Below are positions 730 to 61,011 of a stretch of 64,000 nucleotides of DNA, piece by piece. The DNA comes from Planctomycetia bacterium. GTDB taxonomy: Bacteria > Planctomycetota > Planctomycetia > Pirellulales > Thermoguttaceae. Position 1 is the stretch's first letter. Each line of letters opens with the position of its first letter. The position numbers and the translations under genes were made by a program. The notes beneath the pieces are model-generated. The model was given only the letters and a program-made list of their open reading frames with translations, made no database searches and was not told the origin of the DNA. The DNA lies in the NCBI GenBank assembly GCA_030527015.1, contig JAUNBR010000003.1, positions 28,624 to 92,623 of the forward strand, written 5' to 3'.

Positions 730-836
730 TATACCCCAGATACACTACAAAATTCCGCTTCACCGGCATTTTGCTTCGCTGAAAAAACCTGCTTTTAGAG
801 CCGCACAAAACGAAATTTTAAATTGGAACCAGTATA
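730..836 (+). repeat. SIR105 full copy (subfamily B-like)
   Basis: TATACCCCAGATACAC...AAAATTCCGCTTCACCGGCATTTT..AAAAAACC..CGAAATTTTAAATTGGAACCAGTATA. Confidence 0.9.
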
Positions 837-3436: not shown

Positions 3437-3572
3437 CCGTTTATTCCTCAGAGCAAAAATTTTATCCGCCGATCCAGTCAAAATACTGAGAGCCTATTTT
3501 AAATTTTCATCTCTCGTGGCCTCAAAAACAGATATTTTTCGTAAAACACAAAATACCGGTAAAGAGACAATT

Positions 3573-3784
3573 TATACCCGATGTACCTATAAATTTTCAC
3601 TTCTCCGGCATTTTTATACCCGATACACTATAAAATTCCGCTTCTCCGGCATTTAGCTTCGCCGAAAATGCCTGCAGTCAGAGTCACACAAAACGGAAAT
3701 TTAAAATGGAACCAGTATATACTTCGCTGAAAACGCCGGTTAAGAACCACTCAAAACTTAAATTTAAATTGGAATCAGAGTATC
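3573..3784 (+). mobile_element. SIR105 copy split by insertion of another SIR105 copy (nested composite)
   Basis: Outer 5' part 3573-3614 ends ...CTCCGGCATTTT. Outer 3' part 3720-3784 resumes TACTTCGCTGAAAACGCC...AATTTAAATTGGAATCAGAGTATC. A complete inner copy lies between them. Confidence 0.8.
3615..3719 (+). repeat. SIR105 full copy (inner element of nested pair)
   Basis: TATACCCGATACACTATAAAATTCCGCTTCTCCGGCATTTAGCTTCGCCGAAAATGCC...GGAAATTTAAAATGGAACCAGTATA. Confidence 0.92.
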
Positions 3785-7633: not shown

Positions 7634-7738
7634 TATACCCGATACACTATAAATTTTCGCTTCCCCAGCATTTTGCTTCGCTGAAAATGCCTGCGTTCAG
7701 AACCGCGCAAAACTAAAATTTAAAGTGGAATCAGTATA
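7634..7738 (+). repeat. SIR105 full copy
   Basis: Near-consensus copy starting 14 nt after the infA stop. Confidence 0.95.
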
Positions 7739-11247: not shown

Positions 11248-11389
11248 ACTCGCTGAAAATGCCAGAGGAAACAAAATTTATACCTTCTCTGATGAGGGAT
11301 ACATTTTACATATACTTTCACACCACGATAAAATTTAAAAGAATATTCACGCTTTCACTTTAAATTTTTGTTTCACACGGCCAGAAAAG

Positions 11390-11492
11390 TATATGGTTCT
11401 CGTTTAAATTTCCGTTTTGTGCGGCGCTGAAAGCAGGTACTTTCAGCGAAACAAAAATGCCGGAAAAGCGAAATTTTATCGTGTATCGGGGA
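11390..11492 (-). repeat. SIR105 full copy
   Basis: TATATGGTTCTCGTTTAAATTTCCGTTTTGTGCGGCGCTGAAAGCAGG...GCGAAATTTTATCGTGTATCGGGGA. Further fragments lie at about 11250-11389. Confidence 0.85.
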
Positions 11493-11647
11493 CAAAACAT
11501 TTTTCCGTAATGGAAATGCCTGAAAATAAAATATTTAAAAACTGCTGAATATAAAATACAGAAACCCCGTCATCCCTCATTCGGACAGCAGACAAAACAG
11601 GCGAAAAGATTACTTTTCGTGTACCAGAGTATAAAGAAGAAATACAG

Positions 11648-13663
11648 ATGAACATCAATAAAATTTTAGCGATCGACTTCGGCACGACGAATACCTATTT
11701 AACCCTGTGTCCTGTGGATCAGATGAATAAAACGCCTTTATTCTTTGATCAAAAAACACCAGGAATAGACACCGCCATTCTTTACAGTACACGCACAGAA
11801 GTTCCGCCAGATACGTTTCCGATTATCGGTCAGCATGCGACGACTGCGTATGGCCAGTGCCCGAAGGAAATGATCCGTCAGTACGGATACCGGTATGAAT
11901 CCCACTTTAAACCGGATATCGTAAACAGCGAAACAGCACGCCAGAGCACAGTGGATTTTCTGCAGTGTATGTTAAGAAATATCGAAAAGACAAATAAATT
12001 TTTCCATCTGAAAACGGAACTCCAGAATACTCCACCTTCCTGTCAGGTTATCGTCGGAATTCCCAGTGAAGCCACCGAAGAATTTCGTGCCACACTAAAA
12101 ACTCTTTTCCGACAGTCGGGTTATGGAGAAATCGAATTAATCCATGAACCGAAAGGGGCTTTATTATATGATATGGGCCAGGGTATTTATCCCATCAGCA
12201 AAATTCTTTCTGGATATCTTGTCGTGGATTTTGGCGGCGGCACCTGTGATTTCGCATTTCTGCAAAACGGGGAAGTAAAACATCACTGGGGAAATATGCA
12301 CCTGGGCGGCAGACTTTTTGATGATCTCTTTTATCAGTGGTTCTGTGACCAAAAACCAGGACGTCAGCAGTATTTGGAGGAAAATGGACATGATTTTTAT
12401 GTTCGTACCGCGCTTTGTCGGAACGCAAAAGAAGAGTTTTCAAAAATGATTAATCAAAACATTCCACTTCTTTATAATTTTAGAATCGGCGACTACGGAT
12501 TTCTAGAAAACCCAACAAAAGAGGAATTTCTTGAACGCGCACGGCATTACCGACCATCCTCTTCCTTTTTGCGTTTTCTGGAAAATGCAAAAATACCGTG
12601 CCCTGAACGATTAAATCATGAAACGGATTTAATCGCATGGTTTCGCGAGGAACTTCACCACGGATTAAACATAAAAGGAATCTCGAATAAAAATGTTCAC
12701 TTTTTATCTCTGGCGGGCGGAAGCTCTCTGTGGTTTTTTGTCAAAGAATACTGTTTAGACGCCTTTCCTTCCGCAGTACACGCGAACTGCCTGAATCCAT
12801 ACGCCGCAATTTCTGAAGGTCTCGCCATTCTCCCTGCTTTACAATTAAAATTTGAAAAAATCAGACAGGAAATCCTTCAGACAAAAACAGATTTTCTTCA
12901 AAAAGAAATCAGAGCTCACCTTCAGGCCGGATTTAAAAGTGCATGTACGGAAGCCGTGGATGAAATCACATCCTTACTTTATCATAAAAAATTCATGCCT
13001 ATTTTTGAAGATTTTCGGAAAAACGGGGGCACGATTATTTCTCTGGAACAAAAAATGGAACAAGAAATTATCGCAAATAAAGATGCACTGAAAAAAATCG
13101 TCATAACCGCCTTTACGCGATATTTTGATAATCTTTATGAAACATCTTTATATAAAATACGAAACTGGCTAAAAAATCAGGGAATCGAAATGGGAGAATC
13201 ACAGCTCCAGGGGAACCTTTCCCGTCAGGATATTCAGCTTACTCCCGTGCAGCCGGTAAACGCGACTTTTTTCATGGATGCGATAAATGGCATTATTACC
13301 GTCATTACCACGACGATCGTCGGCAGCATCTGTGGTGGAACCGGAATGGCTCTTATCACTTCTGGACCAGTCGGAATTATTATCGGAGTCGCGCTGACAC
13401 TCGGAGTGGCCCTTCCCGCTTATTTCTTATATGGGCGCGAAAAATCGACTTCCTGGATAAAAGAAAATTTCGTTATTTCCTCTCGGTTTTCAAAATGGAT
13501 TCTTTCTCAAAAAAGAATTGCATCATGCGAAGAAACCATGAAAAAACAGCTTTTTCAGAAGGTAAACGAAGAAAGCCAAAAAGAAATTCAAAATCTTGAA
13601 GTCATTCTCGAAAAACTTATAGATTCTGAAGTCCAGCAGCTTGGCGCCGCGAATATATACTGA
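11648..13663 (+). CDS. Hsp70/actin-fold ATPase with C-terminal transmembrane hairpin
   Basis: AIDFGTTNT (phosphate-1), VVDFGGGTCDF (phosphate-2) and LAGGSS (adenosine) motifs. Hydrophobic stretch ITVITTTIVGSICGG...GVALPAYFLY near the C terminus. Confidence 0.75.
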   Translation: MNINKILAIDFGTTNTYLTLCPVDQMNKTPLFFDQKTPGIDTAILYSTRTEVPPDTFPIIGQHATTAYGQCPKEMIRQYGYRYESHFKPDIVNSETARQSTVDFLQCMLRNIEKTNKFFHLKTELQNTPPSCQVIVGIPSEATEEFRATLKTLFRQSGYGEIELIHEPKGALLYDMGQGIYPISKILSGYLVVDFGGGTCDFAFLQNGEVKHHWGNMHLGGRLFDDLFYQWFCDQKPGRQQYLEENGHDFYVRTALCRNAKEEFSKMINQNIPLLYNFRIGDYGFLENPTKEEFLERARHYRPSSSFLRFLENAKIPCPERLNHETDLIAWFREELHHGLNIKGISNKNVHFLSLAGGSSLWFFVKEYCLDAFPSAVHANCLNPYAAISEGLAILPALQLKFEKIRQEILQTKTDFLQKEIRAHLQAGFKSACTEAVDEITSLLYHKKFMPIFEDFRKNGGTIISLEQKMEQEIIANKDALKKIVITAFTRYFDNLYETSLYKIRNWLKNQGIEMGESQLQGNLSRQDIQLTPVQPVNATFFMDAINGIITVITTTIVGSICGGTGMALITSGPVGIIIGVALTLGVALPAYFLYGREKSTSWIKENFVISSRFSKWILSQKRIASCEETMKKQLFQKVNEESQKEIQNLEVILEKLIDSEVQQLGAANIY

Positions 13664-13666
13664 TTT

Positions 13667-13774
13667 TATACCCGATACACTATAAAATTCCGCTTCACCA
13701 GCATTTTTTTGCTTCGCTGAAAATGCCTGCTTTCAGAACCGCACAAAACGACAATTTAAAGTGGAACCAGTATA
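13667..13774 (+). repeat. SIR105 full copy
   Basis: Near-consensus copy starting 4 nt after the stop of the Hsp70-like gene. Confidence 0.95.
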
Positions 13775-13775
13775 C

Positions 13776-13852
13776 TTTCAAATTTCGTTTTATACCAGGT
13801 ATTTTCAGTGAAGTAAAATCCGAAAAACAAAATTTATTGTGCATCAGGCATA
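13776..13852 (-). repeat. SIR105 truncated copy, head-to-head with the previous copy
   Basis: TTTCAAATTTCGTTTTATACCAGGTATTTTCAGTGAAGTAAAATCCG...AAATTTATTGTGCATCAGGCATAA. Confidence 0.6.
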
Positions 13853-13906
13853 ATACTCAGACATGTTTTAAATTTTACGACTTTCCGAAGAACCACGCTA
13901 AATTTT

Positions 13907-14228: not shown

Positions 14229-14261
14229 CAGCCGGACACAGAGCATTCATACACCACGACT

Positions 14262-14339
14262 TATCCCCGACACACAATAAAATTCCGATTTTTCTGGCGT
14301 TTTTTGCTTCACTGAAAAAATTGGAGAAGCGGAAATTTA
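14262..14339. repeat. SIR105 palindromised short derivative (left arm + loop + inverted left arm)
   Basis: TTATCCCCGACACACAATAAAATTCCGATTTTTCTGGCGTTTTTTGCTTCACTGAAAAAATTGGAGAAGCGGAAATTTA. Confidence 0.6.
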
Positions 14340-14446
14340 TATACCCGATACACACTATAAATTTCCGCTTCCTCGGCATTTTGTTTCACTGAAAATACCT
14401 GTTTTCAGAACCGCAAAAAACGGAAACTTAATGCGGAATCAGTATG
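14340..14446 (+). repeat. SIR105 full copy
   Basis: TATACCCGATACACACTATAAATTTCCGCTTCCTCGGCATTTTGTTTCACTGAAAATACC...GGAAACTTAATGCGGAATCAGTATG. Confidence 0.9.
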
Positions 14447-14528
14447 TGCATCAGGGACCATTAAACGGTAATCCGAAAAAAAACGGAATTCCCAAAACTC
14501 CATATTTCAGAAAATTCAAAGATTCTAT

Positions 14529-24878: not shown

Positions 24879-24881
24879 TTT

Positions 24882-25089
24882 TTATCCAGATGCATTATAA
24901 GAATGACGTATTACCGGCATTTTATACCCGATGCACTATGAATTTTCACTTTCCCGGCATTTTTGCTTCGCCGAAAATACCTGTTTTCTGAACCGCACAA
25001 AACGGAAATTTAATGCAGAACCAGTATTCTCGGTAAAATGCCGGCACCCAGAACCACGCAAAACGAAAATTTTACGTGGAGCCAAGATA
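24882..25089 (+). mobile_element. SIR105 copy split by insertion of another SIR105 copy (nested composite)
   Basis: Outer 5' part 24882-24922 ends ...TACCGGCATTT. Outer 3' part 25028-25089 resumes TCTCGGTAAAATGCCGGCACCCAGAACCACGCAAAACGAAAATTTTACGTGGAGCCAAGATA. Confidence 0.75.
24923..25027 (+). repeat. SIR105 full copy (inner element of nested pair)
   Basis: TATACCCGATGCACTATGAATTTTCACTTTCCCGGCATTTTTGCTTCGCCGAAAATACC...GGAAATTTAATGCAGAACCAGTAT. Confidence 0.9.
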
Positions 25090-25196
25090 AAGTAAAATTA
25101 CAGAATATGGCACTTTTCGAGGTAATGTACATTCCTAAATATAACCCCGGAAAATAACCACATACCGGCCAGGGAATCCGCATTTTAGGCCAAAAA

Positions 25197-34367: not shown

Positions 34368-34495
34368 TATACCCCGATCCCACTTTAAAATTCCTGAATT
34401 CCTCGGTCACAAAAGTACGCATTTTGTGAATCGCGAAATGCCGATCTGCCCGTCATCTGACCGCAGAAGCGGAAATTTAAAGGAAAACCAGTATA
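34368..34495 (-). repeat. SIR105 long variant (extra ~21-nt GC-rich block), termini ambiguous
   Basis: ...CCACTTTAAAATTCC...GCATTTTGTGAATCGCGAAATGCC + GATCTGCCCGTCATCTGACCGC + AGAAGCGGAAATTTAAAGGAAAACCAGTATA. Confidence 0.6.
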
Positions 34496-34596: not shown

Positions 34597-34740
34597 TATA
34601 CCCGATGCATTATAAAATTCCGTTTCATCTTTCTGCCGACAGGTCGGCCGGCATTTTTGCTTCGCTGCCAGCAGCAGGCTGAACTGAAAATGCTTCTTTC
34701 AGAGCCGCACAAAACGGAAATTTAAACGAAAACCAGTATA
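34597..34740 (+). repeat. SIR105 long variant (two extra blocks, 144 nt)
   Basis: Consensus arms plus ATCTTTCTGCCGACAGGTCGG inserted before CCGGCATTTTT, and CCAGCAGCAGGCTGAACTG inserted in the central loop. Confidence 0.85.
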
Positions 34741-35612: not shown

Positions 35613-35627
35613 GCTCTTTTCCTTTTT

Positions 35628-35751
35628 TATATGGTTTTCCTTTAAATTCTCGTTTTGTACGGCTCTGAAAACAGACATTTTCAGCGAAAAAAATACTTGG
35701 CATGCCGGTCGGCGAACATGAGAAACGGAAATTTATCGTGCATCAGATATA
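35628..35751 (-). repeat. SIR105 long variant (one extra block)
   Basis: TATATGGTTTTCCTTTAAATTCTCGTTTTGTACGGCTCTGAAAACAG... plus the GC-rich block CTTGGCATGCCGGTCGGCGAACATG before AGAAACGGAAATTTATCGTGCATCAGATATA. Confidence 0.8.
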
Positions 35752-35975: not shown

Positions 35976-36113
35976 TATGCTGGTTCCACTTTAAATTTCC
36001 ATTTTGTGCTGCTCTAAAAGAGGCATTTTTAGCCCAGCCTGCTGCCGGCAGCGAAGCAAAATGTCAGTCTGTCGGCCGAAAGGTGAAATGAAATTTTATA
36101 GTATATCGGGTAA
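35976..36113 (-). repeat. SIR105 long variant (two extra blocks, 138 nt)
   Basis: TATGCTGGTTCCACTTTAAATTTCC... with CCCAGCCTGCTGCCGGC in the loop and TCAGTCTGTCGGCCGAAAGGT before the arm. Same positions as in 34597-34740. Confidence 0.85.
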
Positions 36114-36331
36114 AATATTAAAATATATAGTGTACCAGATAAATTACCTCTTTTTTTTGATTTTTTTCGAATTATTTATATACCAGCCAATTTTCCGCCG
36201 AAACTGTTTTTTGCGCAAAAATTATTACTCAAGAAATATTTATCTTTTAATATCAAAAAATTATAAATTTATTAAATTTTTCTTGACAAAAATTACACAT
36301 CATATAAAATATAATATCATCAGATTTAACA

Positions 36332-37838: not shown

Positions 37839-38004
37839 GTCCCGCCACTTCACCTTTAATTTTTAGTACGATCACTTTCACTATTTTTTAATTTTTGCTT
37901 TTCCTGTCACTCACCGAATAACGCAGGAATACTTTTTTTATTTTGTTATTTTTTATTTTTTTTTACAAAATATCTTTTTCTGTCTGCATTTTTTATGCCG
38001 TATA

Positions 38005-38110
38005 TATACTGGTTCCAATTTAAAATTTCGTTTTGTGCGGCTCTAAAAGCAGGCTTTTTCAGTGAAGCAAAAAAGCCGGTGAAGCTGAATTTTATAATGT
38101 ATCGTATATA
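38005..38110 (-). repeat. SIR105 full copy, subfamily B
   Basis: TATACTGGTTCCAATTTAAAATTTCG...CAGGCTTTTTCAGTGAAGCAAAAAAGCCGG...GCTGAATTTTATAATGTATCGTATATA. Confidence 0.9.
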
Positions 38111-38215
38111 AAATGCTTCGCTTTTAAATTTCCGTTTTATACGGCTCTGAATGCAGGTATTTTCAGTGAAGCAAAAATGCCGAGAAAGCGGAATTTTATC
38201 GTGCATCCGGATATA
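38111..38215 (-). repeat. SIR105 full copy (terminus diverged)
   Basis: ...CGCTTTTAAATTTCCGTTTTATACGGCTCTGAATGCAGGTATTTTCAGTGAAGCAAAAATGCC...GCGGAATTTTATCGTGCATCCGGATATA. Confidence 0.85.
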
Positions 38216-38220
38216 AAGTG

Positions 38221-38280
38221 TCAGAAAAGCAAAAATTTCGTGCCAGAAAAGCAAAAATTCATAGTGCATCGGATACAAAA
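38221..38280 (-). repeat. two SIR105 arm fragments
   Basis: CAGAAAAGCAAAAATTTCGTGC and CAGAAAAGCAAAAATTCATAGTGCATCGGATACA. Confidence 0.4.
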
Positions 38281-38324
38281 TAGAACCAGGGCACGCTGGA
38301 AAACACTTACTTTCTCCACATGTC

Positions 38325-39719
38325 ATGCAACTTATCGGACTTCTTGACTGTAACAGTTTTTTTGCTTCTTGTGAACAGGTTTTTGCCCCCCACCTGCTGG
38401 CAAAACCTGTCGTCGTTTTGTCGAATAATGACGGCTGTGTCGTGGCGCGATCTGCGGAGGCGAAAAAACTCGGCATCTCCATGGGTACACCGTTTTTTCA
38501 GATCAAAAAAATGTGCCAGCAGGGAGAAATTCATGCTTTTTCTAGTAATTTCCGGCTTTATGCTGACATGAGTCGCCGAGTCATGACCTGCCTCAGGCAG
38601 TGGACGCCGAAACTGGAAATTTATTCTATCGACGAAGCATTTATGGACTTTTCCGGTATGCTGAACGCGGAAACAGACGCTTTTCAGAGGAAAATCGTAG
38701 AAACGGTGAAAAAATGGACGGGAATTCCAGTTTCACTGGGCGTGGCACGAACGAAAACACTGGCGAAAATAGCGAATCATGTGGCTAAAAAAAATGGAGT
38801 GGGATTCTTCACTTTAAACTCACTCGGACAGGCACAGGAAATTCTCAGCGTGCTGCCGGTGGGGGAAGTCTGGGGAGTGGGAACACGTTCCGCACGAAAA
38901 TTCATGCAGCAGGGAATCCGTACCGGATGGGATCTTTTAAATACGGATCCACTGTGGGCACGAAAGAATTTTTCTGTCGTTCAGGAACGCATTATCCGAG
39001 AGCTGCGCGGAGAAAACTGTCTGGAAATGGAATATCTTCCTGCACCGAAACAGTCGATTCAGGTCTCCCGATCTTTTGGCGAAAAACTTACCACGCTGGA
39101 AGATCTGGAGAAGCCTGTTTCATCATTTCTTGTTCGTGCAGCCGAAAAATTACGGGCACAAAACAGTTTAGCCAGCGCTATTTTTTTAAGTGTTTCCGGA
39201 AAATGGACAGAACCACCTCTTTTTATACACACGGATAAGAATTCGGACAAAACAGACGCTCCCCCCTCCAGTATTTTTGGCTGGAAGACCTCATCTTATC
39301 AGGATAATACCGCCCCTACAGGAACTTATTACAGTAATTCTGTTACGCTTCCCCTGGGTTTTCCCTGTAATAACACATCTTATATGCTTCCTCTGACCTT
39401 AAAGGGGCTTCGTCAAATTTTTCATCCACAAATCGCCTTTAAAAAAGCCAGCGTTACACTTCTGGGAATTACCAGTCGGGGAGAAAACCAGCAGATCCAG
39501 CTTTTTGATAACGCTCCCACTCAAGACACACAGCGCAGCATCCGATTAATGGAAACTCTGGACGCACTGCATGCTCAGCTGGGCAAAGAATGTATCGTTT
39601 TTGGAACGGAAGAATTACCTCATCCAAAAAATGCTCCGCAAAATACATGGAAAAGTCTTTCGGAAAGACGCTCGCCTAATTACACTTCCGACTGGAATGA
39701 CCTGCCGGAAGTTCATTAA
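38325..39719 (+). CDS. umuC: Y-family DNA polymerase (UmuC-like)
   Basis: N terminus LLDCNSFFASCEQVF.P.L..KPVVVLSNNDGCVVARS.EAK..GI is typical of UmuC. No umuD-like gene upstream. Confidence 0.82.
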   Translation: MQLIGLLDCNSFFASCEQVFAPHLLAKPVVVLSNNDGCVVARSAEAKKLGISMGTPFFQIKKMCQQGEIHAFSSNFRLYADMSRRVMTCLRQWTPKLEIYSIDEAFMDFSGMLNAETDAFQRKIVETVKKWTGIPVSLGVARTKTLAKIANHVAKKNGVGFFTLNSLGQAQEILSVLPVGEVWGVGTRSARKFMQQGIRTGWDLLNTDPLWARKNFSVVQERIIRELRGENCLEMEYLPAPKQSIQVSRSFGEKLTTLEDLEKPVSSFLVRAAEKLRAQNSLASAIFLSVSGKWTEPPLFIHTDKNSDKTDAPPSSIFGWKTSSYQDNTAPTGTYYSNSVTLPLGFPCNNTSYMLPLTLKGLRQIFHPQIAFKKASVTLLGITSRGENQQIQLFDNAPTQDTQRSIRLMETLDALHAQLGKECIVFGTEELPHPKNAPQNTWKSLSERRSPNYTSDWNDLPEVH

Positions 39720-39800
39720 AATTTACTGGACATGAAACACCAGAATCTGACCGAAAAATCAGTATGTGCAAAATAAGAAACGATTTACCCCTGTTATTTT

Positions 39801-40008
39801 TATACCTGATACCATAAAAAAATTCATTTTCCGGCATCTTATACCCGATACACTGTAAATTTCCACTTCCTCCGTATTTTACTTCGCTGAAAATGTCTGT
39901 TTCAGAACCGCAAAAAATGGAATTTAAACGAAAACCTGTATATTTCGCGAAGAATATGTATATTTTCAGAGAAACAAAAAACGAAAATTTAAGGTAAAAC
40001 CGCCATAA
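39801..40008 (+). mobile_element. SIR105 copy split by insertion of another SIR105 copy (nested composite)
   Basis: Outer 5' part 39801-39839 ends ...TTCCGGCATCT. Outer 3' part 39943-40008 resumes TTTCGCGAAGAATATG...AAAAACGAAAATTTAAGGTAAAACCGCCATA. Confidence 0.65.
39840..39942 (+). repeat. SIR105 full copy (inner element of nested pair)
   Basis: TATACCCGATACACTGTAAATTTCCACTTCCTCCGTATTTTACTTCGCTGAAAATG...GGAATTTAAACGAAAACCTGTATA. Confidence 0.85.
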
Positions 40009-40053
40009 ATATTTTTCCATATAACCGAAACACATTTTACCCAGGCATATAAA

Positions 40054-40156
40054 TATACCCGATACACTATAAATTTCCACTTCTCATGCATTTTTGCTTC
40101 GAGAAAAATGTCTGTTTCAGAACCGTACAAAACGGAAATTTAAATAGAACCATATA
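40054..40156 (+). repeat. SIR105 full copy
   Basis: TATACCCGATACACTATAAATTTCCACTTCTCATGCATTTTTGCTTCGAGAAAAATG...GGAAATTTAAATAGAACCATATA. Confidence 0.85.
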
Positions 40157-40192
40157 ATAAAAAAGCCGTAATATTTCCAGAACATTACGGCC
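40157..40192 (-). terminator. intrinsic terminator downstream of GH2 gene
   Basis: GCCGTAAT (40165-40172) pairs with ATTACGGC (40184-40191). On the minus strand the hairpin is followed by TTTTTTAT. Confidence 0.6.
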
Positions 40193-40223: not shown

Positions 40224-42575
40224 TTATTCTTCAAAAAGGATTCCCAGATCGATATACTGCAGTCCTCTTTTTTGATGAACATGAACCGCGATAACGTTCG
40301 GACCTTCTTTTAAGGCTTTTACAGCATTTTCATCCAGGCGAAACTCTTCATAATTCACGGTATAACCGGTGGTCTCAAATATTTTCACCCCATTCAGATA
40401 CACTTCCACATCATCATCGTGATGGATTCTTAAAGCCATTCCTTTCGGTAATTCTTCCGTAAAAGTGAAACTTTGGCGCATCCATATATCTCGGGTATCC
40501 CATTTCGTCCTTAACGCATCCGCACCAGGCGTTCCTTCCCTTCCGAATCCCGCAGGACCTTCCTGCCAGAGAGTGGCGTCAAAATCCAGCGTGGTCCAGG
40601 CATTTCCTTCTGGTTTTTCAAAAGTATATCGCCACACTCTCGGAGATTCTTCTGCGGTGGGAAGAAATACCTTATACTTCTTCGGCGCGGAGAAAAGCAT
40701 CTGATTTATTTCTTTTACGCGATCTTTTCCCATTTTATTCACTTTTCTGTCATACGTCAAAAGACCATTCGTCTCCGTTTCCACATCTGTCGTCTGTGTA
40801 TAAACCGCAGCAGAAAGTCCACGTGGAATTAATGACGCCGTTCTTTCGACTAATTTAGAATATCTCGTAGTGAGTGAATACACATGGGAAAAATTCACAT
40901 AACCCCAGTTTCGTTTCCCTGTCTGCCAAAGATGCTCCCGCACGGGAAGCCCCAGACCGCCGAATTCTCCAAGAACCATCGCGCGCTGTGACTGATAATC
41001 TGGTATATCTGGCCCCGGATAAGAGTGAACATCTTTCACGGAACCGCACCCTGGCACATCCGTCCATCCACTGGCACAATTCACCAGACGTGTCGGATCC
41101 AGAGCCTGTGTCCACTGCACCACCTGAGGCGTATCGAACTGTCCCCAGCCCTCATTAAACACCACCCACATAATAATAGACGGCGAATTACGCAGGGTTT
41201 TCACAATTTCTCCCCATTCTCGATAATAATTTCTTTTCCCTTCTTCTGAAATCGGAAAATCGCCAGAAACCATATCTTGCCACACTAAAATTCCCAGTTT
41301 ATCACACCAGGCATAATACCGCCGCGGCTCCACTTTTACATGTTTTCGCAGCATATTAAACCCCATGGCTTTCGTGATTTCCACATCATATTTCAGCGCG
41401 TCATCCGTCGGTGCCGTATATAATCCATCCGGCCACCATCCCTGATCCAAAAGTCCATACTGAAACATAAATTTATCATTCAGAAGAAGACGCATATGTC
41501 CATCTTCTGTTTTTTTCACAGAAGTCGTACGCACACCAAAATAACCTGTTATGGAATCCACCATTTTTGAATTCACCAGCACGTCCACCGTCAGCGTATA
41601 CAGATACGGATGATCCGGTGTCCATAATCTGGCTTCATCCAAAACCAGAACTCCGCTAAAACGCCTCAGAGGAACTTTTACATTCATCGTCAGATTCTGG
41701 ATGTCATTTTCCACTTCCGATTTCCCATCCAGCACCACAGAAAACGCCCCCACTTCCGCACCATCCATATCAGATGCAGTAATATTTATCAGCGCACCCT
41801 CTGGCGCAATCACCGTTCCCTCCACATACACTTTTCCATTAAGTGTCGGTATCAATTTTTCATTAAACTTTTCCGCCGCCGCGGTCCACACATCCACGAC
41901 TGCCCCCTCTGGCGAAACCGGCTCCAGCCACACGCTTCCCCAGATACCTGTTACCCCAGTATACCAGATTCCTTCCGGATTTAATGACTGCTTTCCCCGT
42001 GGCTGGTAACTTCCACGCGCACTGGTGGCATCATAAACCGTTACCTCCAAAAGCTGCTGACCTGAATCCTTCAGCTCCTGCGTAATATCCATGGAAAACG
42101 GTACATAACCTCCCCGGTGTACCCCCACCTCTCTTCCATTTACCCGCACTTCCGCTTCCCAGTCCACCGCCTCAAAATTCAGTAAAATCCGACTCCCTTT
42201 CCATTCCTCAGGAACCTCAAACATCCGACAATAATATATTTTTTCTTCAGAATTCACCGACTTCTTTACTCCCGAAAGTGCCGATTCGGGCGGAAATGGA
42301 ACCAGAATTTTTCCGTCATATTCTCCTGCTCCGACACTTTCTTTCGGGCGAATCGCATAATCCCACATACCATTCAGAGATTTCCAGTTCTTCCGTTCCA
42401 TCTGCGGACGCGGATATTCCCCATGACAATTTTCCGGATCCACTTTTACTCCCCAGTCCGTCAGCATCACTCCTTCAGGAATGTTCCACTGCTGAGCAAA
42501 AAGTAATGTCTGCGCACAAAACACGAATAAAAAAACCATTACTTTTCCCCAAAAAATTTCCCTGCTTTTTTGCAT
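40224..42575 (-). CDS. glycoside hydrolase family 2 protein
   Basis: 783 aa with a signal peptide. Sugar-binding/Ig/TIM layout with an IIMWVVFNEGWGQ catalytic-acid region and an extra C-terminal beta-sandwich. AGGAGG RBS. Confidence 0.85.
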   Translation of the reverse strand: MQKSREIFWGKVMVFLFVFCAQTLLFAQQWNIPEGVMLTDWGVKVDPENCHGEYPRPQMERKNWKSLNGMWDYAIRPKESVGAGEYDGKILVPFPPESALSGVKKSVNSEEKIYYCRMFEVPEEWKGSRILLNFEAVDWEAEVRVNGREVGVHRGGYVPFSMDITQELKDSGQQLLEVTVYDATSARGSYQPRGKQSLNPEGIWYTGVTGIWGSVWLEPVSPEGAVVDVWTAAAEKFNEKLIPTLNGKVYVEGTVIAPEGALINITASDMDGAEVGAFSVVLDGKSEVENDIQNLTMNVKVPLRRFSGVLVLDEARLWTPDHPYLYTLTVDVLVNSKMVDSITGYFGVRTTSVKKTEDGHMRLLLNDKFMFQYGLLDQGWWPDGLYTAPTDDALKYDVEITKAMGFNMLRKHVKVEPRRYYAWCDKLGILVWQDMVSGDFPISEEGKRNYYREWGEIVKTLRNSPSIIMWVVFNEGWGQFDTPQVVQWTQALDPTRLVNCASGWTDVPGCGSVKDVHSYPGPDIPDYQSQRAMVLGEFGGLGLPVREHLWQTGKRNWGYVNFSHVYSLTTRYSKLVERTASLIPRGLSAAVYTQTTDVETETNGLLTYDRKVNKMGKDRVKEINQMLFSAPKKYKVFLPTAEESPRVWRYTFEKPEGNAWTTLDFDATLWQEGPAGFGREGTPGADALRTKWDTRDIWMRQSFTFTEELPKGMALRIHHDDDVEVYLNGVKIFETTGYTVNYEEFRLDENAVKALKEGPNVIAVHVHQKRGLQYIDLGILFEE

Positions 42576-42772: not shown

Positions 42773-42858
42773 AATATATCTGACTTCATTTATATGAAAA
42801 GAAGCCTGATATTACCATTCCTCTTAATTATACAGCTCCCAATTTTAAATTTCCATTT

Positions 42859-42963
42859 TATACAGGATCTTCTTTAAATTCCTTTTTGCGCTGCTCTGAA
42901 ATCAGGCTTTTTTTTAAAGAAAAAATGCCGTGGACGCGGAAATTTATCGTGCATCAGAGATAT
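42859..42963 (-). repeat. SIR105 full copy, diverged
   Basis: TATACAGGATCTTCTTTAAATTCCTTTTTGCGCTGCTCTGAAATCAGG...GCGGAAATTTATCGTGCATCAGAGATA. Confidence 0.75.
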
Positions 42964-43062
42964 GCGCAGCCATAAAAAGGCAGCATTTCATGCATCGCAA
43001 AAACAGAGAAAAGAAAAATTTATCGCACGCCGGGCCAGATTATTTATCACATGCGGAGCACA

Positions 43063-44788: not shown

Positions 44789-45997
44789 TTAAGGACAGGA
44801 AATGTTATTTCGCAGAAACTGGCAGGTTTCACGGAGATTCGTTCCATGAGAAAAAAGTCCGCCACCGATCAGAAGCATGACGTCTGTTCCATAAGTTTCG
44901 AGCATTCGGTTCACGTTTTCGATTTTCATTCCGCCAGCAGGACAGGGAAAAATGGGAGAAAGGTGCGCCATTTTTTGTGTTGCCGCGGCGGCGATTTCTT
45001 TACATTCCTGGTGTGAAAAGGAAAATCGGCCTCCAAAATTTGGGAAGATCGTGGCGTCCGCACCCGACAGACGCGCGATTTGGCCGAAAAGGCATCCGTG
45101 AGAGATTCCGGCAGTATTTAAGACGAAAGAACCGAGAAAAGCGGGGTGCATGAAAATAGGCAGTGAAAAGTCGGGGTCTGATGAAAGTTCGCGCAAAATA
45201 TCGAAACCAGTCAGGCCAGGTGAAATAAGAACTCCACCGGCACCACATTCTTGGGCATAACGGGCACGACGGATTATTTCAGAATGCGGCGCGGTAATAT
45301 TCGGGACATAAATGCTGCGGTAACCCGTTTCGTCGTTCGCACGGCGAATGGCTGCGGTACAGGCAGTGACACGCTGAGAGAAGGGAGAAAAAGTCTGATT
45401 ACTGATGCCGTGATCGTCTTTAATGATGTCCATTCCGCCGCGTGCAAAATCGTAAGCCAGAGAGGCCAGATCTTCAGCGGAAAGTCCCTGTGGTTTCAGA
45501 GCGGTAAAAAGCAGCGGACGCCCATGAACCTGCAAAAGATTACGTATTCCTGTGATTCCGAATCGCGGGCCAGGAAAATGCTGGATGAGATTTTCCGAAA
45601 GATTCAGAGAAAGAACACGAATCCCGGGTTTAATGCTAATATTTCCGTAAACGACATTTAACAGCTGAGGAAGCTCTGGTGTCAGAACTTCATCCGCAAA
45701 ACTGATGCGGACTTTCGCGGTCACTTTCGGTGGCACCGGCACGGAGTGAGGAATACCAAGAAAATTTTCGGAGTCATTTTCATATTCCAGTGATACGATC
45801 TGTCCCAGAATTTTTTCAGGAATCTCGCCGGGGGGTAATAAATTTACGGGAAACTCCACCGTCTGCTCTGCGCAAATATCCAGCGCTTTTTTATGAAGTT
45901 CTTCGGGCGTATCTGCGGTGATGGAATATGTTATCTGACTGCGGGAACCAGAAAGTTGGGCGGATAAAGCATGGTTACAAAAAGTTTCAAAAAACAT
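44789..45997 (-). CDS. RuBisCO large-subunit-like protein (form IV, RLP)
   Basis: ALKPQGLS, GGMDIIKDDHG and LLIGGGLFSHG blocks align by eye with RuBisCO KPKLGLS, GG.DF.KDDE and GGG..HP. I prefer the ATG at 45997 (MFFETF). The longer track ORF runs into a repeat copy. Confidence 0.8.
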   Translation of the reverse strand: MFFETFCNHALSAQLSGSRSQITYSITADTPEELHKKALDICAEQTVEFPVNLLPPGEIPEKILGQIVSLEYENDSENFLGIPHSVPVPPKVTAKVRISFADEVLTPELPQLLNVVYGNISIKPGIRVLSLNLSENLIQHFPGPRFGITGIRNLLQVHGRPLLFTALKPQGLSAEDLASLAYDFARGGMDIIKDDHGISNQTFSPFSQRVTACTAAIRRANDETGYRSIYVPNITAPHSEIIRRARYAQECGAGGVLISPGLTGFDILRELSSDPDFSLPIFMHPAFLGSFVLNTAGISHGCLFGQIARLSGADATIFPNFGGRFSFSHQECKEIAAAATQKMAHLSPIFPCPAGGMKIENVNRMLETYGTDVMLLIGGGLFSHGTNLRETCQFLRNNISCP

Positions 45998-46058
45998 GAA
46001 TCTTAGATAAAAATAAAAAGTAATTTTAGCACACAAGAAAATCTTAATTTTCAGATAA

Positions 46059-46166
46059 TATACCCGATGCATTATAAAATTCCACTTTTCTGGCATTTTT
46101 ACTTTTCGCTGAAAACATGTGCTTTTAGCGCGGTAAAAAACGGAAATTTAAAGCAGAATCATTATA
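46059..46166 (+). repeat. SIR105 full copy, diverged
   Basis: TATACCCGATGCATTATAAAATTCCACTTTTCTGGCATTTTTAC...AAAAACGGAAATTTAAAGCAGAATCATTATA. Confidence 0.8.
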
Positions 46167-48497: not shown

Positions 48498-49016
48498 ATT
48501 TTGCCCTGTGTATTTCCTGAAATATAAAACTAAAATGAGGACATTACGCGTACATGCTGGTCTCACACAAAATTTTAGCTTCTGCTGTACAAAATGGAAA
48601 TTTAGAATGTGTGACCAAGAACGGAAGAATTCCTTATAGCATACCAGCTACTTGACTTTTTTTCAACTGTTTTTTATAAATAATCTTAGTTTTTTATAAA
48701 TTTTATTTTTTTATATTATAATAATGTAGGATAAATTGAGAGGATATGTAAAGTAGTATATACTTTTTTACACGAGTCGATTTTTGTTTTTCATTTCGTT
48801 TTAAGAGAGATGATCTTTTTTATGCGTAATGACATTTTATTTTTTTAGTATTTTGTGTTACGGAAAGAATTCTGTGCTTTTGTGACTTTAAAACTGAAAT
48901 TTAAGGAGGGACCAGCGATAAAAGTTAAAATGAAACAGAGATAAATGGTGAGTGGTGTACAAAAAGAAACTTTGAAAGATGGAATAAAAATTTGAAAAAA
49001 CAGAAATGAGGTCTTC

Positions 49017-50463: not shown

Positions 50464-51162
50464 TCACTCACCACGAGGTAAAAGAAGGTAAACCAGGGTC
50501 ATAATACTCTGGAGAGTAGCGGCGACATAAGTCATCGCGGCGGCACGTAAAACGCGATTTACACTGCCGAGAGCATCTGAGGTAAAAATACCCATATTCG
50601 CCAGTTCGGCTTTTGCACGTGTGCTGGCATTAAATTCCACAGGTAAATTGATAATCTGGAAAAAGACGACAGCTGAAAAAAGGACGATTCCGGCCAAGAT
50701 AAGAGGCGGAAAGGAAAAGAGGATGCCTAAAATGAACATCCAGATACCCGCACCACTTCCAAAACCCGCCAGCGGAACGACAAGATTTCGGATGGTTAAG
50801 GGGGCGTACTTATGAGCGTGCTGAAGGGCGTGGCCCGCTTCGTGAGCCGCGACTCCCACGGCGGAGGCGGTAAATCCATGATAAACTTCTGGACTGAGGC
50901 GTAAAACTCGGGCAGAAGGGTCATAATGATCTGATAATGTGCCTTCCACCTGCTCGATCGCGACATCCATTAAACCCGCATTATCCAAAATCCGTCGCGC
51001 GGCCTGCGCTCCGGAGATGGAAGTCGGATGGCTCTGCCCAGACATAAACGCGGATTTCACCCATACTTGAGCCAGGAGTCCTAAAAGAAGAAATGGACCG
51101 ACCAAAATAAAATAAAGCGGATCCAAAACAATAAACGAAAAAATGGGGATTCCTGTAAACAT
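50464..51162 (-). CDS. zinc metallopeptidase (Zn_peptidase_2 / YugP-like)
   Basis: HEAGHALQH motif, membrane segments and AAGGAG RBS. Confidence 0.85.
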   Translation of the reverse strand: MFTGIPIFSFIVLDPLYFILVGPFLLLGLLAQVWVKSAFMSGQSHPTSISGAQAARRILDNAGLMDVAIEQVEGTLSDHYDPSARVLRLSPEVYHGFTASAVGVAAHEAGHALQHAHKYAPLTIRNLVVPLAGFGSGAGIWMFILGILFSFPPLILAGIVLFSAVVFFQIINLPVEFNASTRAKAELANMGIFTSDALGSVNRVLRAAAMTYVAATLQSIMTLVYLLLPRGE

Positions 51163-51813: not shown

Positions 51814-52509
51814 TCATATCCGCCCATTTTGCTGCGAAGTTCCTCTGAAAATGAGTAGGATATAATACAGAAGTGTCATGACGATTTGGAGCGTCGCCGC
51901 GATATAAGTCATGGCGGCAGCATTCAGTACCCGACTTACATGAAACTGCGCATCTTGAGAAAAAGCACCCATGTTAGCCAGCTGGGTTTTTGCACGAGAA
52001 CTGGCGTTAAATTCCACAGGTAAATTAATAATTTGAAATAAAACAGCAGCAGAAAAAAAGATTAAACCCGTTACCGCGAGAGGTTTCAGGGATATGATTA
52101 GTCCGAGGAAAAACATAATTAAACCGAGATTACTCCCGAAACCCGCAGCAGGAACGATTAAATTACGGAGTTTCAGAGGAAGATAATTCGTGGCGTGCTG
52201 CAGTGCATGGCCCGCTTCATGGGCAGCGACACCCACGGCGGAAGCGTCATAATTATTATAAACATCAGGACTTAATCGCAGAACCCGAGCTGTGGGATCA
52301 TAATGATCGGAAAGTGTTCCGGAAATCATTTCGATTTTTATATGATGTAAGCCGGCTTTATCTAAAATTTTTCGTGCTGTCTGATAACCGGATAAAACGG
52401 TATGATATTTTTGTCCAGATATAAAAGCAGATCTTACCCATGCCTGAGCGAAGATGCCTAAAAGAAAAAATGGACCGACAAGAATGAAATAAATGGGGTC
52501 TAATATCAT
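51814..52509 (-). CDS. zinc metallopeptidase (Zn_peptidase_2 / YugP-like), paralogue
   Basis: Collinear with 50464-51162: same HEAGHALQH, INLPVEFNAS and AAMTY.AATLQ blocks. Confidence 0.85.
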   Translation of the reverse strand: MILDPIYFILVGPFFLLGIFAQAWVRSAFISGQKYHTVLSGYQTARKILDKAGLHHIKIEMISGTLSDHYDPTARVLRLSPDVYNNYDASAVGVAAHEAGHALQHATNYLPLKLRNLIVPAAGFGSNLGLIMFFLGLIISLKPLAVTGLIFFSAAVLFQIINLPVEFNASSRAKTQLANMGAFSQDAQFHVSRVLNAAAMTYIAATLQIVMTLLYYILLIFRGTSQQNGRI

Positions 52510-54234: not shown

Positions 54235-54320
54235 TAATTTAGCATCTTATTCCAGGCGCATTTATAATTTCTATTTTTCTGTCTGCTGACTGGCTGGTTT
54301 TTCGCGGAGTATGAAAGAGT

Positions 54321-54368
54321 CTGCTTTTTCAGGTTACACAAAACGGAAATTTAAAGTGGAACCTGATA
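54321..54368 (+). repeat. SIR105 3'-arm fragment (between the two tat genes)
   Basis: CTGCTTTTTCAGGTTACACAAAACGGAAATTTAAAGTGGAACCTGATA. Confidence 0.6.
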
Positions 54369-54407
54369 TTTTAAGATGAGTGACGGATGTAGTCAGAGAG
54401 GTGTTTC

Positions 54408-58364: not shown

Positions 58365-58386
58365 AAAATAGCTGTTTTTTTGAATT

Positions 58387-58657
58387 TATATTCGACGTAT
58401 GATAAATTTTCGTTTTCTCGACATTTTTTATCGGATACACGATAAATTTCGCTTCTCTGATATTTTTGTGCTAAAAATATTTGCGTTTCTGCTGATTCTC
58501 CTGTAAATTTCCGTTTCATGCGGCTTTTAACGCAGACATTTTCAGCGAGAAAAAAATGCCAGAAAAGCGGAAATTTATCGTGCATCGGGTATAAAACCGC
58601 ATAAAATGAAAATTTAAAGGAGAGCCGGTATAAGGAAATTTATCGTGTATCAGTATA
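58387..58657. repeat. mosaic of at least 5 SIR105 pieces in both orientations
   Basis: Left-arm fragment 58387-58428. Left arm plus hairpin 58429-58495. Nearly full minus-orientation copy 58495-58593. Right-arm fragment 58596-58632. Left-arm fragment (inverted) 58633-58657. Confidence 0.7.
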
Positions 58658-58667
58658 AAACCCCTCC

Positions 58668-59600: not shown

Positions 59601-59657
59601 AATCAGTTTAAACATAATCAAAACATTTTATATAATATTTTAGTGAAGGAAAATAAG

Positions 59658-60659
59658 ATGCCATTATTTGAGAGTTATGAACGAAGAATTGGCCAGATTA
59701 CTCCTGTGCTGGAGGAATATGGTTTTAAAAATATTGAGGAAGTCCGTGATTTTTGTCTTGAACGGGGCGTGGATCCTGCAGGAATTACGAAGAGCATTCA
59801 GCCGATCGCTTTTGAAAATGCGCTCTGGGCATACACACTGGGGTGTGGAATCGCGCTGAAGAAGGAGTGCAAAAAAGCGGCGGACGCGGCGGAGGCGATC
59901 GGTCTGGGTTTACAGGCTTTTTGTATTCCCGGTTCCGTGGCGGACCAGCGGCAGGTGGGGCTGGGCCATGGAAATCTTGCGGCCATGCTTTTAAGGGAAG
60001 AGACGAAATGTTTCTGTTTTTTGGCCGGGCATGAATCTTTTGCCGCTGCGGAGGGGGCGATCGGAATCGCGCGTTCTGCCAATAAAGTTCGCCAGACTCC
60101 TCTGCGTGTGATTCTGAATGGTCTGGGAAAAGACGCCGCTTTAATTATTAGTCGTATTAATGGTTTTACATATGTTCAGACGGAATACGATTACGCCACG
60201 GGCACTTTAAAAATCATTCGGGAAAAACCATATTCGGATGGTGAGCGTTCAAAAGTTCGTTGTTTTGGTGCCGATGATGTCAGTGAAGGTGTGGCGATCA
60301 TGCGTCATGAAGATGTGGACGTTTCGATTACAGGAAATTCCACGAATCCCACGCGTTTTCAGCATCCGGTGGCTGGAACGTATAAAAAATGGAGTGTCGA
60401 TAATGGGAAAAAATACTTTTCCGTCGCCTCCGGTGGTGGAACTGGGCGTACATTGCACCCGGATAATATGGCCGCGGGGCCGGCGTCTTATGGGATGACG
60501 GACACCATGGGCCGTATGCATTCCGACGCACAATTTGCGGGTTCCTCTTCTGTCCCGGCTCACGTGGAAATGATGGGGCTTATCGGAATGGGAAATAATC
60601 CCATGGTCGGCGCGACTGTGGCGGTGGCGGTGGCGGTGGAAGAATCATTTTCATCTTAA
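59658..60659 (+). CDS. GGGtGRT family protein
   Basis: Contains the name-giving ASGGGTGRTLHPDNMAAGPASYGMTD block. ATG at 59658 with GAAGGA upstream. The track start at 59643 is GTG. Confidence 0.8.
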   Translation: MPLFESYERRIGQITPVLEEYGFKNIEEVRDFCLERGVDPAGITKSIQPIAFENALWAYTLGCGIALKKECKKAADAAEAIGLGLQAFCIPGSVADQRQVGLGHGNLAAMLLREETKCFCFLAGHESFAAAEGAIGIARSANKVRQTPLRVILNGLGKDAALIISRINGFTYVQTEYDYATGTLKIIREKPYSDGERSKVRCFGADDVSEGVAIMRHEDVDVSITGNSTNPTRFQHPVAGTYKKWSVDNGKKYFSVASGGGTGRTLHPDNMAAGPASYGMTDTMGRMHSDAQFAGSSSVPAHVEMMGLIGMGNNPMVGATVAVAVAVEESFSS

Positions 60660-60766
60660 TAAATGAAATCTGATTTTCTGGTTTCTGATTTACCTCCGTC
60701 TTTTTTACTTCAGCGGTTTTATCTTTTGTAAAAATATAAAGTGGAAAAATATTTTTGATTCCACTT

Positions 60767-60872
60767 TATATCCGATATACCATAAATTCCGCTTCCCAGG
60801 CATTTTTACTTCGCTGAAAATGCCTGGCTTTCAGAGCCGCACAAAATGGAAATTTAAACGAAAACCAGATAA
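60767..60872 (+). repeat. SIR105 full copy
   Basis: TATATCCGATATACCATAAATTCCGCTTCCCAGGCATTTTTACTTCGCTGAAAATGCC... Preceded by a 10-bp inverted repeat, TAAAGTGGAA (60737-60746) / TTCCACTTTA (60759-60768), built from right-arm sequence. Confidence 0.9.
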
Positions 60873-61011
60873 ATTTCCATTTTATGTGGCCACGAAAGTA
60901 GGATTCCCAGTCCAGTCTGTTCCGGCAGAGGGTATGGGCTGGTGATTTCCATTCATTTACGTGCCCCATCCGTCAGCGTGAATGCAGCGAGAAGCCTGGA
61001 GTTCCGGAAAA

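Follow-up and report, generated by a model that had tools for sequence, protein, structure and literature searches.

Most bacterial MITEs carry inverted repeats, end in 5′-TA-3′ and are accompanied by target duplications, and RUP, 107 bp long, has been linked to IS630-Spn1 and to TA targets (PMC2229807). How does the locus described here, a repeat copy interrupted by another copy of its own kind, compare with such systems? The family to which both copies belong resembles RUP in being non-coding and intergenic, of about the same size (~106 vs 107 bp) and bounded by terminal inverted repeats and TA, and it shares with RUP the insertion at TA and a tendency to land in other mobile DNA (PMC2229807). 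The two differ in abundance: RUP is present in ~108 copies per genome, whereas the present family reaches ~1.3 copies per kb in the window, the whole 64-kb stretch of DNA that was analysed. Moreover, the inverted repeats of RUP match those of a known IS, while no such partner was found for the present family, and a one-sided preference for a T-run, as seen here, is not mentioned for RUP in PMC2229807.

The Correia/NEMIS elements of Neisseria are likewise similar in design, with long terminal inverted repeats (24 bp vs ~30 nt here), TATA-type termini, TA duplication, a high copy number, placement between genes and a long stem as the predicted fold of their transcripts (PMC2229807). Their sequence is unrelated, however, and they carry IHF sites and promoters, whereas the present family has a covarying, off-centre hairpin and a far higher density. 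Nesting as such is familiar from plant MITEs (Tourist and Stowaway multimers), which often lie within older ones, as short AT-rich targets recur inside the elements. These, however, are eukaryotic and use symmetric TA or TAA targets, whereas the target described below is one-sided and fixes the orientation of the insert.

A different set of parallels is offered by IS200/IS605, REP/REPIN-RAYT and TIRYT systems, where a short T-rich target is found on one side, at one end, hairpins are depended upon, and short palindromic repeats occur in very high numbers. The inverted repeats flanking TIRYT genes can themselves form repeat families (PMC3733652). Unlike these systems, the present family has long inverted repeats and is without tags, strand bias or a Y1 gene in the window. 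Lastly, IS1397 and ISKpn1, DDE elements of the IS3 family, insert into the loops of REP palindromes. Yet each is an autonomous IS that duplicates 3-4 bp and depends strictly on the palindrome, while most insertions of the present family lie outside any hairpin.

The nest at 39801-40007 and its repeat family

Within the spacer that separates UmuC (38325-39719, plus strand) from a GH2 glycosidase (40224-42575, minus strand), a younger ~106-bp repeat copy sits inside an older one of its family that has decayed (Table 1). The 5′ part of the outer copy, terminating in GGCATCT, comprises the left inverted repeat together with one arm (5′) of the central hairpin; the other arm (3′) follows in the 3′ part, between what remains of the loop and the inverted repeat on the right, and this part terminates in CCGCCATA. 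The inner copy is 83% identical to the family consensus and has the same orientation as the outer one. When the inner copy was excised and the flanks were rejoined, the profile matched from HMM 2 to 110 across the junction (40.2 bits, E 2e-12), and the rejoined outer copy was 68% identical to the consensus. It is interrupted after HMM 44, where the T-run in the 5′ arm of the hairpin ends. The original prediction, which had read this segment as an outer 5′ part, a full copy and an outer remainder, is thereby borne out; of the range it gave, 39801-40008, the start holds, while the outer copy finishes one base earlier, at 40007.

The same arrangement is found in a Logan short-read contig (L001, from SRR24915838; 1.9 kb), which equals positions 38154-40083 of the window exactly, nest included. 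It was the one UmuC-encoding Logan contig found, and both of its ends lie inside repeat copies.

How large is the family? A BLAST search followed by an iterated nhmmer profile over the 64-kb window yielded 85 non-overlapping matches (8.2 kb, 13% of the window; ~1.3 copies per kb), 48 of them full length. The consensus, TATACCCGATACACTATAAATTTCCGCTTCCCCGGCATTTTTGCTTCGCTGAAAATGCCTGCTTTCAGAGCCGCACAAAACGGAAATTTAAAGTGGAACCAGTATA, is ~106 bp long and non-coding and has the ends TA-TAC...GTA-TA. Its terminal inverted repeats are imperfect and ~30 nt long (TATACnnGnTnCACTnTAAATTTCCG); they also give rise to reverse-strand profile matches of 20-45 bits on the same copies. One well-formed internal hairpin, GGCATTTT-loop-AAAATGCC, lies off-centre, 33 nt from the left end. 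Folded as single-stranded DNA, the consensus shows both the inverted repeats and the hairpin (z = -3.8). The copies in the window are old and diverged, with a median identity of 86% to the consensus and of 77% between pairs of copies.

The surroundings are those of ordinary housekeeping genes: the window has 41% G+C, and ~71% of it is coding. Non-coding DNA amounts to 18.3 kb, and since the family fills 44% of it, nesting is to be expected. A near-full copy is present in 32 of the 39 intergenic regions. Strand usage is balanced, with 31 copies on the plus and 30 on the minus strand, and in spacers between tandem genes 18 copies are co-oriented and 19 anti-oriented with respect to the neighbouring genes. 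The GC skew switches near 48 kb, and the ratios of plus to minus copies are 26:22 on one side of this point and 5:8 on the other (Fisher P = 0.36). REPs are palindromes of 20-40 nt that are headed by GTAG or CGTC and occur as inverted pairs (PMC3733652); the ends of the present consensus carry neither tag, and neither inverted repeat is itself a palindrome. An integron attC array was also considered and rejected, as the copies point either way and are interspersed with ordinary housekeeping genes. Should the window be representative of the genome, this one family would account for ~13% of all DNA and for almost half of the non-coding part; to our knowledge, such a MITE load would be among the densest in any bacterium. 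It would be relevant to assembly, intergenic annotation and gene regulation in Planctomycetia-related organisms.

Relatives of the family were sought by scanning a single genome of each species for its pattern, which placed it in three MAGs of Planctomycetia or Planctomycetaceae (CAYTLK01, JAUNBK01 and JAUNAI01). That of JAUNBK01 is almost identical (92-93 bits) and resides in DNA of 52-54% G+C. The families of CAYTLK01 and JAUNAI01 have the same inverted repeats and a different core, in which the hairpin arms GGCATTTT/AAAATGCC are replaced by GTCATTTC/GAAATGAC in one and by GTCGTT/AACGAC in the other. Across an alignment of 38 sequences from four genomes, the internal stem is paired in 82% and the terminal TATAC/GTATA helix in 94%. 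At pair 35-64 of this alignment, GC occurs 24 times, UA 11 times and GU three times, with none unpaired, and at pair 37-62 the counts are 26 for AU, four for GC, two for UA and six not paired. Through such compensatory changes the internal hairpin is preserved across families. Scans of metagenomes and viruses with a 25-nt pattern returned chance matches only and no real copies. An Rfam scan of the whole window at gathering thresholds gave no match, and in the literature we found no description of a planctomycete MITE or of the present family. It is thus probably a previously undescribed MITE family without an Rfam model.

A census of nests and the target rule

Nests are natural records of filled and empty sites. 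To collect them, each near-full copy was excised, the flanks were rejoined and the joins were searched with the family profile. The window contains at least ten nests, at least seven of them at positions other than the loop edge and some with the inner copy in opposite orientation to the outer (Table 1). Ten entered the statistics, namely six non-loop nests, three loop nests and the doubtful case at 730-836; the weak case at 35976 was left out. In all ten, the inner copy outscores the outer.

Table 1. Coordinates of the nest at 39801-40007, its neighbouring copy and the further nests of the window
Feature	Span	Outer and inner copies	Strand	Site or sequence	Score and remarks
Outer copy, 5′ part	39801-39839		+	TATACCTGATACCATAAAAAAATTCATTTTCCGGCATCT; reads TATACCTGAT...CCGGCATCT	
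Inner copy, complete	39840-39942		+	TATACCCGAT...CCTGTATA	82 bits, HMM 3-113
Outer copy, 3′ part	39943-40007		+	TTTCGCGAAG...CCGCCATA	39946-40008 matches HMM 48-110
Separate neighbouring copy	40054-40158		+		79.5 bits; same intergenic region, outside the nest
Loop nest	3571-3784	outer 3571-3614 and 3720-3784, inner 3615-3719	+	junction GGCATTTT / TATAC	
Loop nest	24881-25092	outer 24881-24922 and 25029-25092, inner 24923-25028	+	junction GGCATTT / TATAC	
Possible loop event, doubtful	686-836	5′ half 686-729, full copy 730-836	+	5′ half ends GACATCTTT	3′ remainder rearranged
Possible loop event, doubtful	7634-7738			flank preceding the copy, TTCCGGTATTTT	
Nest	58426-58633	inner 58488-58593	inner -, outer +	HMM 68, GCGTT-TA-AAACC	rejoined 65.5 bits
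Nest	13651-13853	inner 13667-13774	inner +, outer -	HMM ~97-99, ATTT-TA	rejoined 48.5 bits
Nest	14259-14457	inner 14340-14446	inner +, outer ambiguous	HMM 92 (plus) or 20 (minus), AAATTTA/TATAAATTT	
Nest	42827-43035	inner 42859-42962	inner -, outer -	HMM 79-81, CCATTT-TA-TGCG	
Nest	11350-11529	inner 11389-11494	inner -, outer -	HMM ~65	outer decayed; rejoined 25.5 bits
Nest	60753-60903	inner 60767-60872	inner +, outer -	HMM 92, TTTAAA site	outer partial
Nest, weak case		inner 35976-36114	inner -, outer -	HMM 34	

Besides the nest at 39801-40007, two others interrupt the loop. Both lie at HMM 43/44, right after GGCATTT(T), with the inner copy co-oriented with the outer; scores are 70.2 bits (E 1e-21) for the rejoined outer and 101.4 bits for the inner copy of the nest at 3571-3784, and 49.2 and 101.7 bits, respectively, for that at 24881-25092. 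In the loop nests, identity to the consensus amounts to 83-91% for the three inner copies and to 68-77% for the three outer ones, and the bases directly before the inner copy differ (TTTT, TTT and TCT). Since the outer copies are only 61-64% identical to one another, the three are separate insertions of younger into older copies rather than duplicates of one composite. As for the possible event at 686-836, its rejoined flanks reach 14.6 bits only, and on the opposite strand.

The original prediction had counted three independent nestings in the window, all after GGCAT(T/C)T and all with inner and outer copies in the same orientation. Independence is upheld by the divergence of the outer copies, and site and shared orientation are as described for these three, but the count was incomplete: the seven or more other nests lie elsewhere in the element, and at 13667, 60767 and 58488 the two copies point in opposite directions. 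Among these further nests, that at 13667 is close to the 3′ repeat of the outer copy, and that at 14340 lies inside an inverted repeat of the older copy, which scores similarly on both strands; the palindromic nature of the element leaves the strand of this outer copy ambiguous. A further nest, at a GAATTT-TA site, was found in a MAG locus (L007, 7361-7480).

What, then, is the target? Nests and the flanks of non-nested copies reveal the same oriented rule: the family inserts at a TA directly after a T-run (TTT-TA), with the 5′ end of the element beside the T-run. Where copies are flanked by unique DNA, T is found at -3, -2 and -1 in 23/33, 27/33 and 27/33 cases, respectively (background 0.34; P 3e-5 to 2e-8). 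On the 3′ flank, A is present at 38-48%, which is not significant, and there is no A-run to match the 5′ T bias (70-82%). The three MAGs show the same preference, with T at -3, -2 and -1 in 13/16, 15/16 and 13/16 copies (background 0.25). Among the sites used, 48% are a TA preceded by TTT, whereas in unique non-coding DNA such sites represent 11% of the site-orientations available. In nine of ten nests the T-run is on the 5′ side of the inner copy (P = 0.02), the nest at 42859 being the sole one with the T-run on the 3′ side. That the T-run might be part of the element was considered and rejected: the Ts at the nests are already accounted for by the consensus of the outer copy. One such case is 60767, where the exact consensus CACTTTAAATTTCC is regained once the inner copy is excised and one TA kept.

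TA is present at both junctions in 86-98% of copies. We favour a duplication of TA upon insertion, though this is not proven, as a constant TA at the ends cannot be distinguished from one that belongs to the element. Summed over the nests, the outer copies score 402 bits after excision if 2 nt are kept, 379 if none and 382 if 4 nt are kept. The preference for 2-3 nt is clearest where the outer segment is conserved, that is at 58488 (65.5 bits keeping 2 nt vs 59.2 keeping none), 13667 (48.5 vs 41.7), 14340 and 60767, and in the MAG nest in L007, where keeping one TA gives the exact consensus length. At 14340 and 60767 the best score was obtained with 3 nt kept, which, on inspection by hand, stems from the extrapolated 3′ end of the inner copy being shifted by 1 nt. 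The nest at 3615 scores best with 0 nt kept, and an extra TA is present there as well as at 14340; because loop length varies, the three loop nests are uninformative on whether TA is kept. Duplications of TTA, TAT or TATA fitted worse than TA, both by excision scores and on inspection of the sequences, and a search for a variable target duplication of 2-8 nt found no excess at any boundary offset tested.

Mechanism of insertion

How might such a family have spread? Probably, these are MITEs mobilised in trans to TTT-TA targets, nesting on account of their density and of the T-run at the edge of their own loop. A transposase encoded elsewhere in the genome would move the copies, and the enzyme would most likely be a TA-duplicating DDE transposase of either the IS630/Tc1-mariner type or the IS5/IS427 type. 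It would insert them at TTT-TA, placing the 5′ end of the element next to the T-run. In the copies that have it, the loop edge GGCATTTT-TA-C is one of the best target matches within the element, which accounts for both the recurrent position and the shared orientation of the loop nests. Features that fit a MITE of a TA-duplicating DDE transposase are the long inverted repeats, conserved despite the change of core, the TA at both ends, the balanced strands and the resemblance to RUP, Correia and other bacterial MITEs. None of the 40 ORFs of the 64-kb window encodes a transposase, and no longer element that shares the inverted repeats came to light. As for the partial copies in L002 and L006, a role as ends of an autonomous IS was rejected, since no transposase ORF adjoins them.

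TA-duplicating DDE transposons commonly have symmetric targets and insert in either orientation. Because of this symmetry, a one-sided T-run is unexpected for mobilisation by such an enzyme, and the one-sided target preference, as well as the role of the hairpin, is not accounted for by this explanation. Of the two classes that the original prediction had proposed for comparison, HUH systems and TA-targeting MITEs, the latter is favoured by the TA-flanked inverted repeats and the balanced strands, while the one-sided T-run is untypical of Tc1/mariner and IS630. One-sided target and covarying hairpin are, at the same time, clues for finding the transposase responsible.

Targets of IS200/IS605 have a one-sided flank as their hallmark, and here, in the window and the three MAGs alike, conservation of the flank is strictly confined to the left end. 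The one-sided T-run is the main argument for an HUH mechanism. Could the copies, then, be products of single-stranded transposition by a Y1/HUH enzyme (as in IS200/IS605, RAYT or TIRYT systems), inserting 3′ of 5′-TTTTA without duplication and with the hairpin bound? The restored lengths would be the same for an element ending in TA as for a TA duplication, and a bound hairpin would be consistent with the compensatory changes that keep it across families. HUH genes flanked by the inverted repeats of repeat families have been described, and the planctomycete R. baltica has abundant tyrosine-transposase genes with flanking repeats (PMC3733652). Against this stand the architecture and the distribution of the copies. 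The ends of the element are formed by 30-nt terminal inverted repeats instead of by individual sub-terminal hairpins, and they carry neither a GTAG nor a CGTC tag. The 4-5 nt (CCCC) that precede the foot of the hairpin on its 5′ side are not complementary to a TTTTA target, and neither a Y1 nor a RAYT gene is present in the window. Insertion into the lagging-strand template, moreover, predicts a strong bias, whereas strands are balanced overall (31:30) and on either side of the GC-skew switch (26:22 and 5:8). We therefore regard Y1/HUH transposition as unlikely.

Stated more broadly, an orientation-defining mechanism, in place of an ordinary symmetric cut-and-paste DDE reaction, might read T-run and TA on one strand, be it HUH/TIRYT-like or an unconventional recombinase that uses the covarying hairpin. 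We give this little credence as well; if true, it would be the route by which the family came to occupy ~80% of the intergenic regions, and 13% of all DNA, in a planctomycete-related genome.

Loop edge and hairpin as candidate targets

Does mobilisation in trans to TTT-TA suffice for three nests at one internal position? The original prediction had argued from the recurrence for a preferred target, either the T-rich edge of the loop or the hairpin itself. The first of these stands: at least three of ten nests at the loop site in the same orientation are expected with P ~1.5e-5 under uniform insertion and P ~0.003 if TA alone is targeted. The loop TA (GGCATTTT-TA-C) occurs in 16 of 54 copies (~30%) and accounts for 6% of internal TA sites. 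For comparison, a site model was built as a weight matrix for positions -4 to -1 plus TA, trained on non-nested copies only. This T-run + TA matrix assigns 12.7% of the expected nests to the loop site in the same orientation, the observed number then having P = 0.12, and in simulations under the model some site reaches at least three of ten nests in 65%. The same rule explains the shared orientation of the loop nests, as it is on the strand of the outer copy itself that the T-run precedes the TA. With the doubtful cases at 730 and 7634 included, five of 12 nests fall at the loop site (P = 0.012), and there may be a modest extra preference for it.

The second possibility, that the hairpin structure is recognised as an extruded cruciform or a loop and that self-nesting in the loop is specific, as it is for IS1397 in REP loops, draws on these same three clean, possibly five, events at one loop edge and on the P = 0.012 that attaches to five of 12. 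In its favour, too, a 52-nt window at the loop site folds with -6.2 kcal/mol, vs about -2 at ordinary sites. Yet seven other nests and ~45 copies in unique DNA use T-run + TA sites that are free of hairpins, and the sequence model is sufficient for the three clean events (P = 0.12). Empty sites, reconstructed for 25 non-nested copies, have the same folding potential as unoccupied controls (-2.0 vs -2.2 kcal/mol for 104 unoccupied TTT-TA sites, P = 0.7), and the hairpin is not a general requirement for insertion. Recognition of the hairpin structure is thus very doubtful, and the proposal that the hairpin itself is the target finds no backing, with T-run + TA sufficing and no excess of folding at empty sites.

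The loop nesting at 39801-40007 accordingly reflects the T-run + TA targeting of the whole family rather than recognition of its own hairpin, hairpin targeting being mostly explained away, and in so dense a MITE family a nest of this kind is an expected by-product. An origin without any insertion preference, through chance, a copied composite, unequal recombination or misassembly, is almost certainly wrong: repeats do break short-read assemblies, and the Logan contig ends in repeat copies on both sides, but the nest is identical in that independent assembly, uniform insertion has P ~1.5e-5, the outer copies are 61-64% identical to one another and their junctions differ, unequal crossover would leave hybrids of normal length rather than a half, a whole and a half, and in ten of ten nests the outer halves, by their scores, belong to a copy older than the inner.

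Repeat load and assembly

The window is densely occupied by the ~106-bp repeat family, with 85 matches to the family HMM across positions 1-64000, which together take up 13% of its DNA and 44% of its non-coding DNA. At least one copy lies in 32 of the 39 intergenic regions, and coding density is low (~71%). The Logan short-read contig L001, which matches window 38154-40083, both starts and stops within repeat copies; evidently, short-read assemblies of the source organism are broken up by the family.

Composite copies, a longer subfamily and related families

Besides single copies, the window holds composite arrangements and a subfamily of greater length (see table). The inverted 5′-end fragment that closes the pile-up reads GGAAATTTATCGTGTATCAGTATAAAA, and the 5′ half adjoining the two abutting copies carries an internal duplication of 20 nt, AATTTTTGCTTTTCTGRCAC. 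These two copies meet at GCATTT-TA-TATAC, where they overlap by a single TA common to both. In members of the longer subfamily, HMM positions 34 and 52-54 carry additional GC-rich segments, which appear to lengthen the central hairpin.

Repeat arrangements and genes of the window
Feature	Window position	Remarks
Complex repeat pile-up	58385-58660	5′ half, then plus-strand copy split by minus-strand copy, then inverted 5′-end fragment
Two abutting copies adjoining a 5′ half	38002-38278	minus strand
Longer subfamily	34370-34495, 34597-34740, 35627-35751, 35976-36114, 54248-54369	122-144 nt
RuBisCO-large-chain-like protein gene	44789-46096	match confined to catalytic domain
Zn_peptidase_2 genes	50464-51162 and 51814-52509	two adjacent paralogues, repeat copies in between
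GGGtGRT-family protein gene	59643-60659	E 1.6e-198

Related repeats occur in the Planctomycetia MAGs CAYTLK01, JAUNBK01 and JAUNAI01 (loci L003, L004, L005 and L007-L014), with the same inverted repeats and different cores. Among these families the internal hairpin is preserved through compensatory base changes. The JAUNBK01 repeats are almost the same family as that of the window, even though G+C content is 52-54% in JAUNBK01 versus 41% in the window.

GC skew and gene context

Between ~48000 and 49100, GC skew turns from strongly negative (to -0.27) to positive (+0.19), and the cumulative minimum (near 48 kb) falls at a pair of divergent genes whose very AT-rich spacer spans 450 nt (48567-49016). 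This looks like a switch of the replication-origin type, but DnaA boxes of the E. coli type form no cluster there. Elsewhere in the window, the RuBisCO-large-chain-like gene and the GGGtGRT-family gene both sit amid housekeeping genes.
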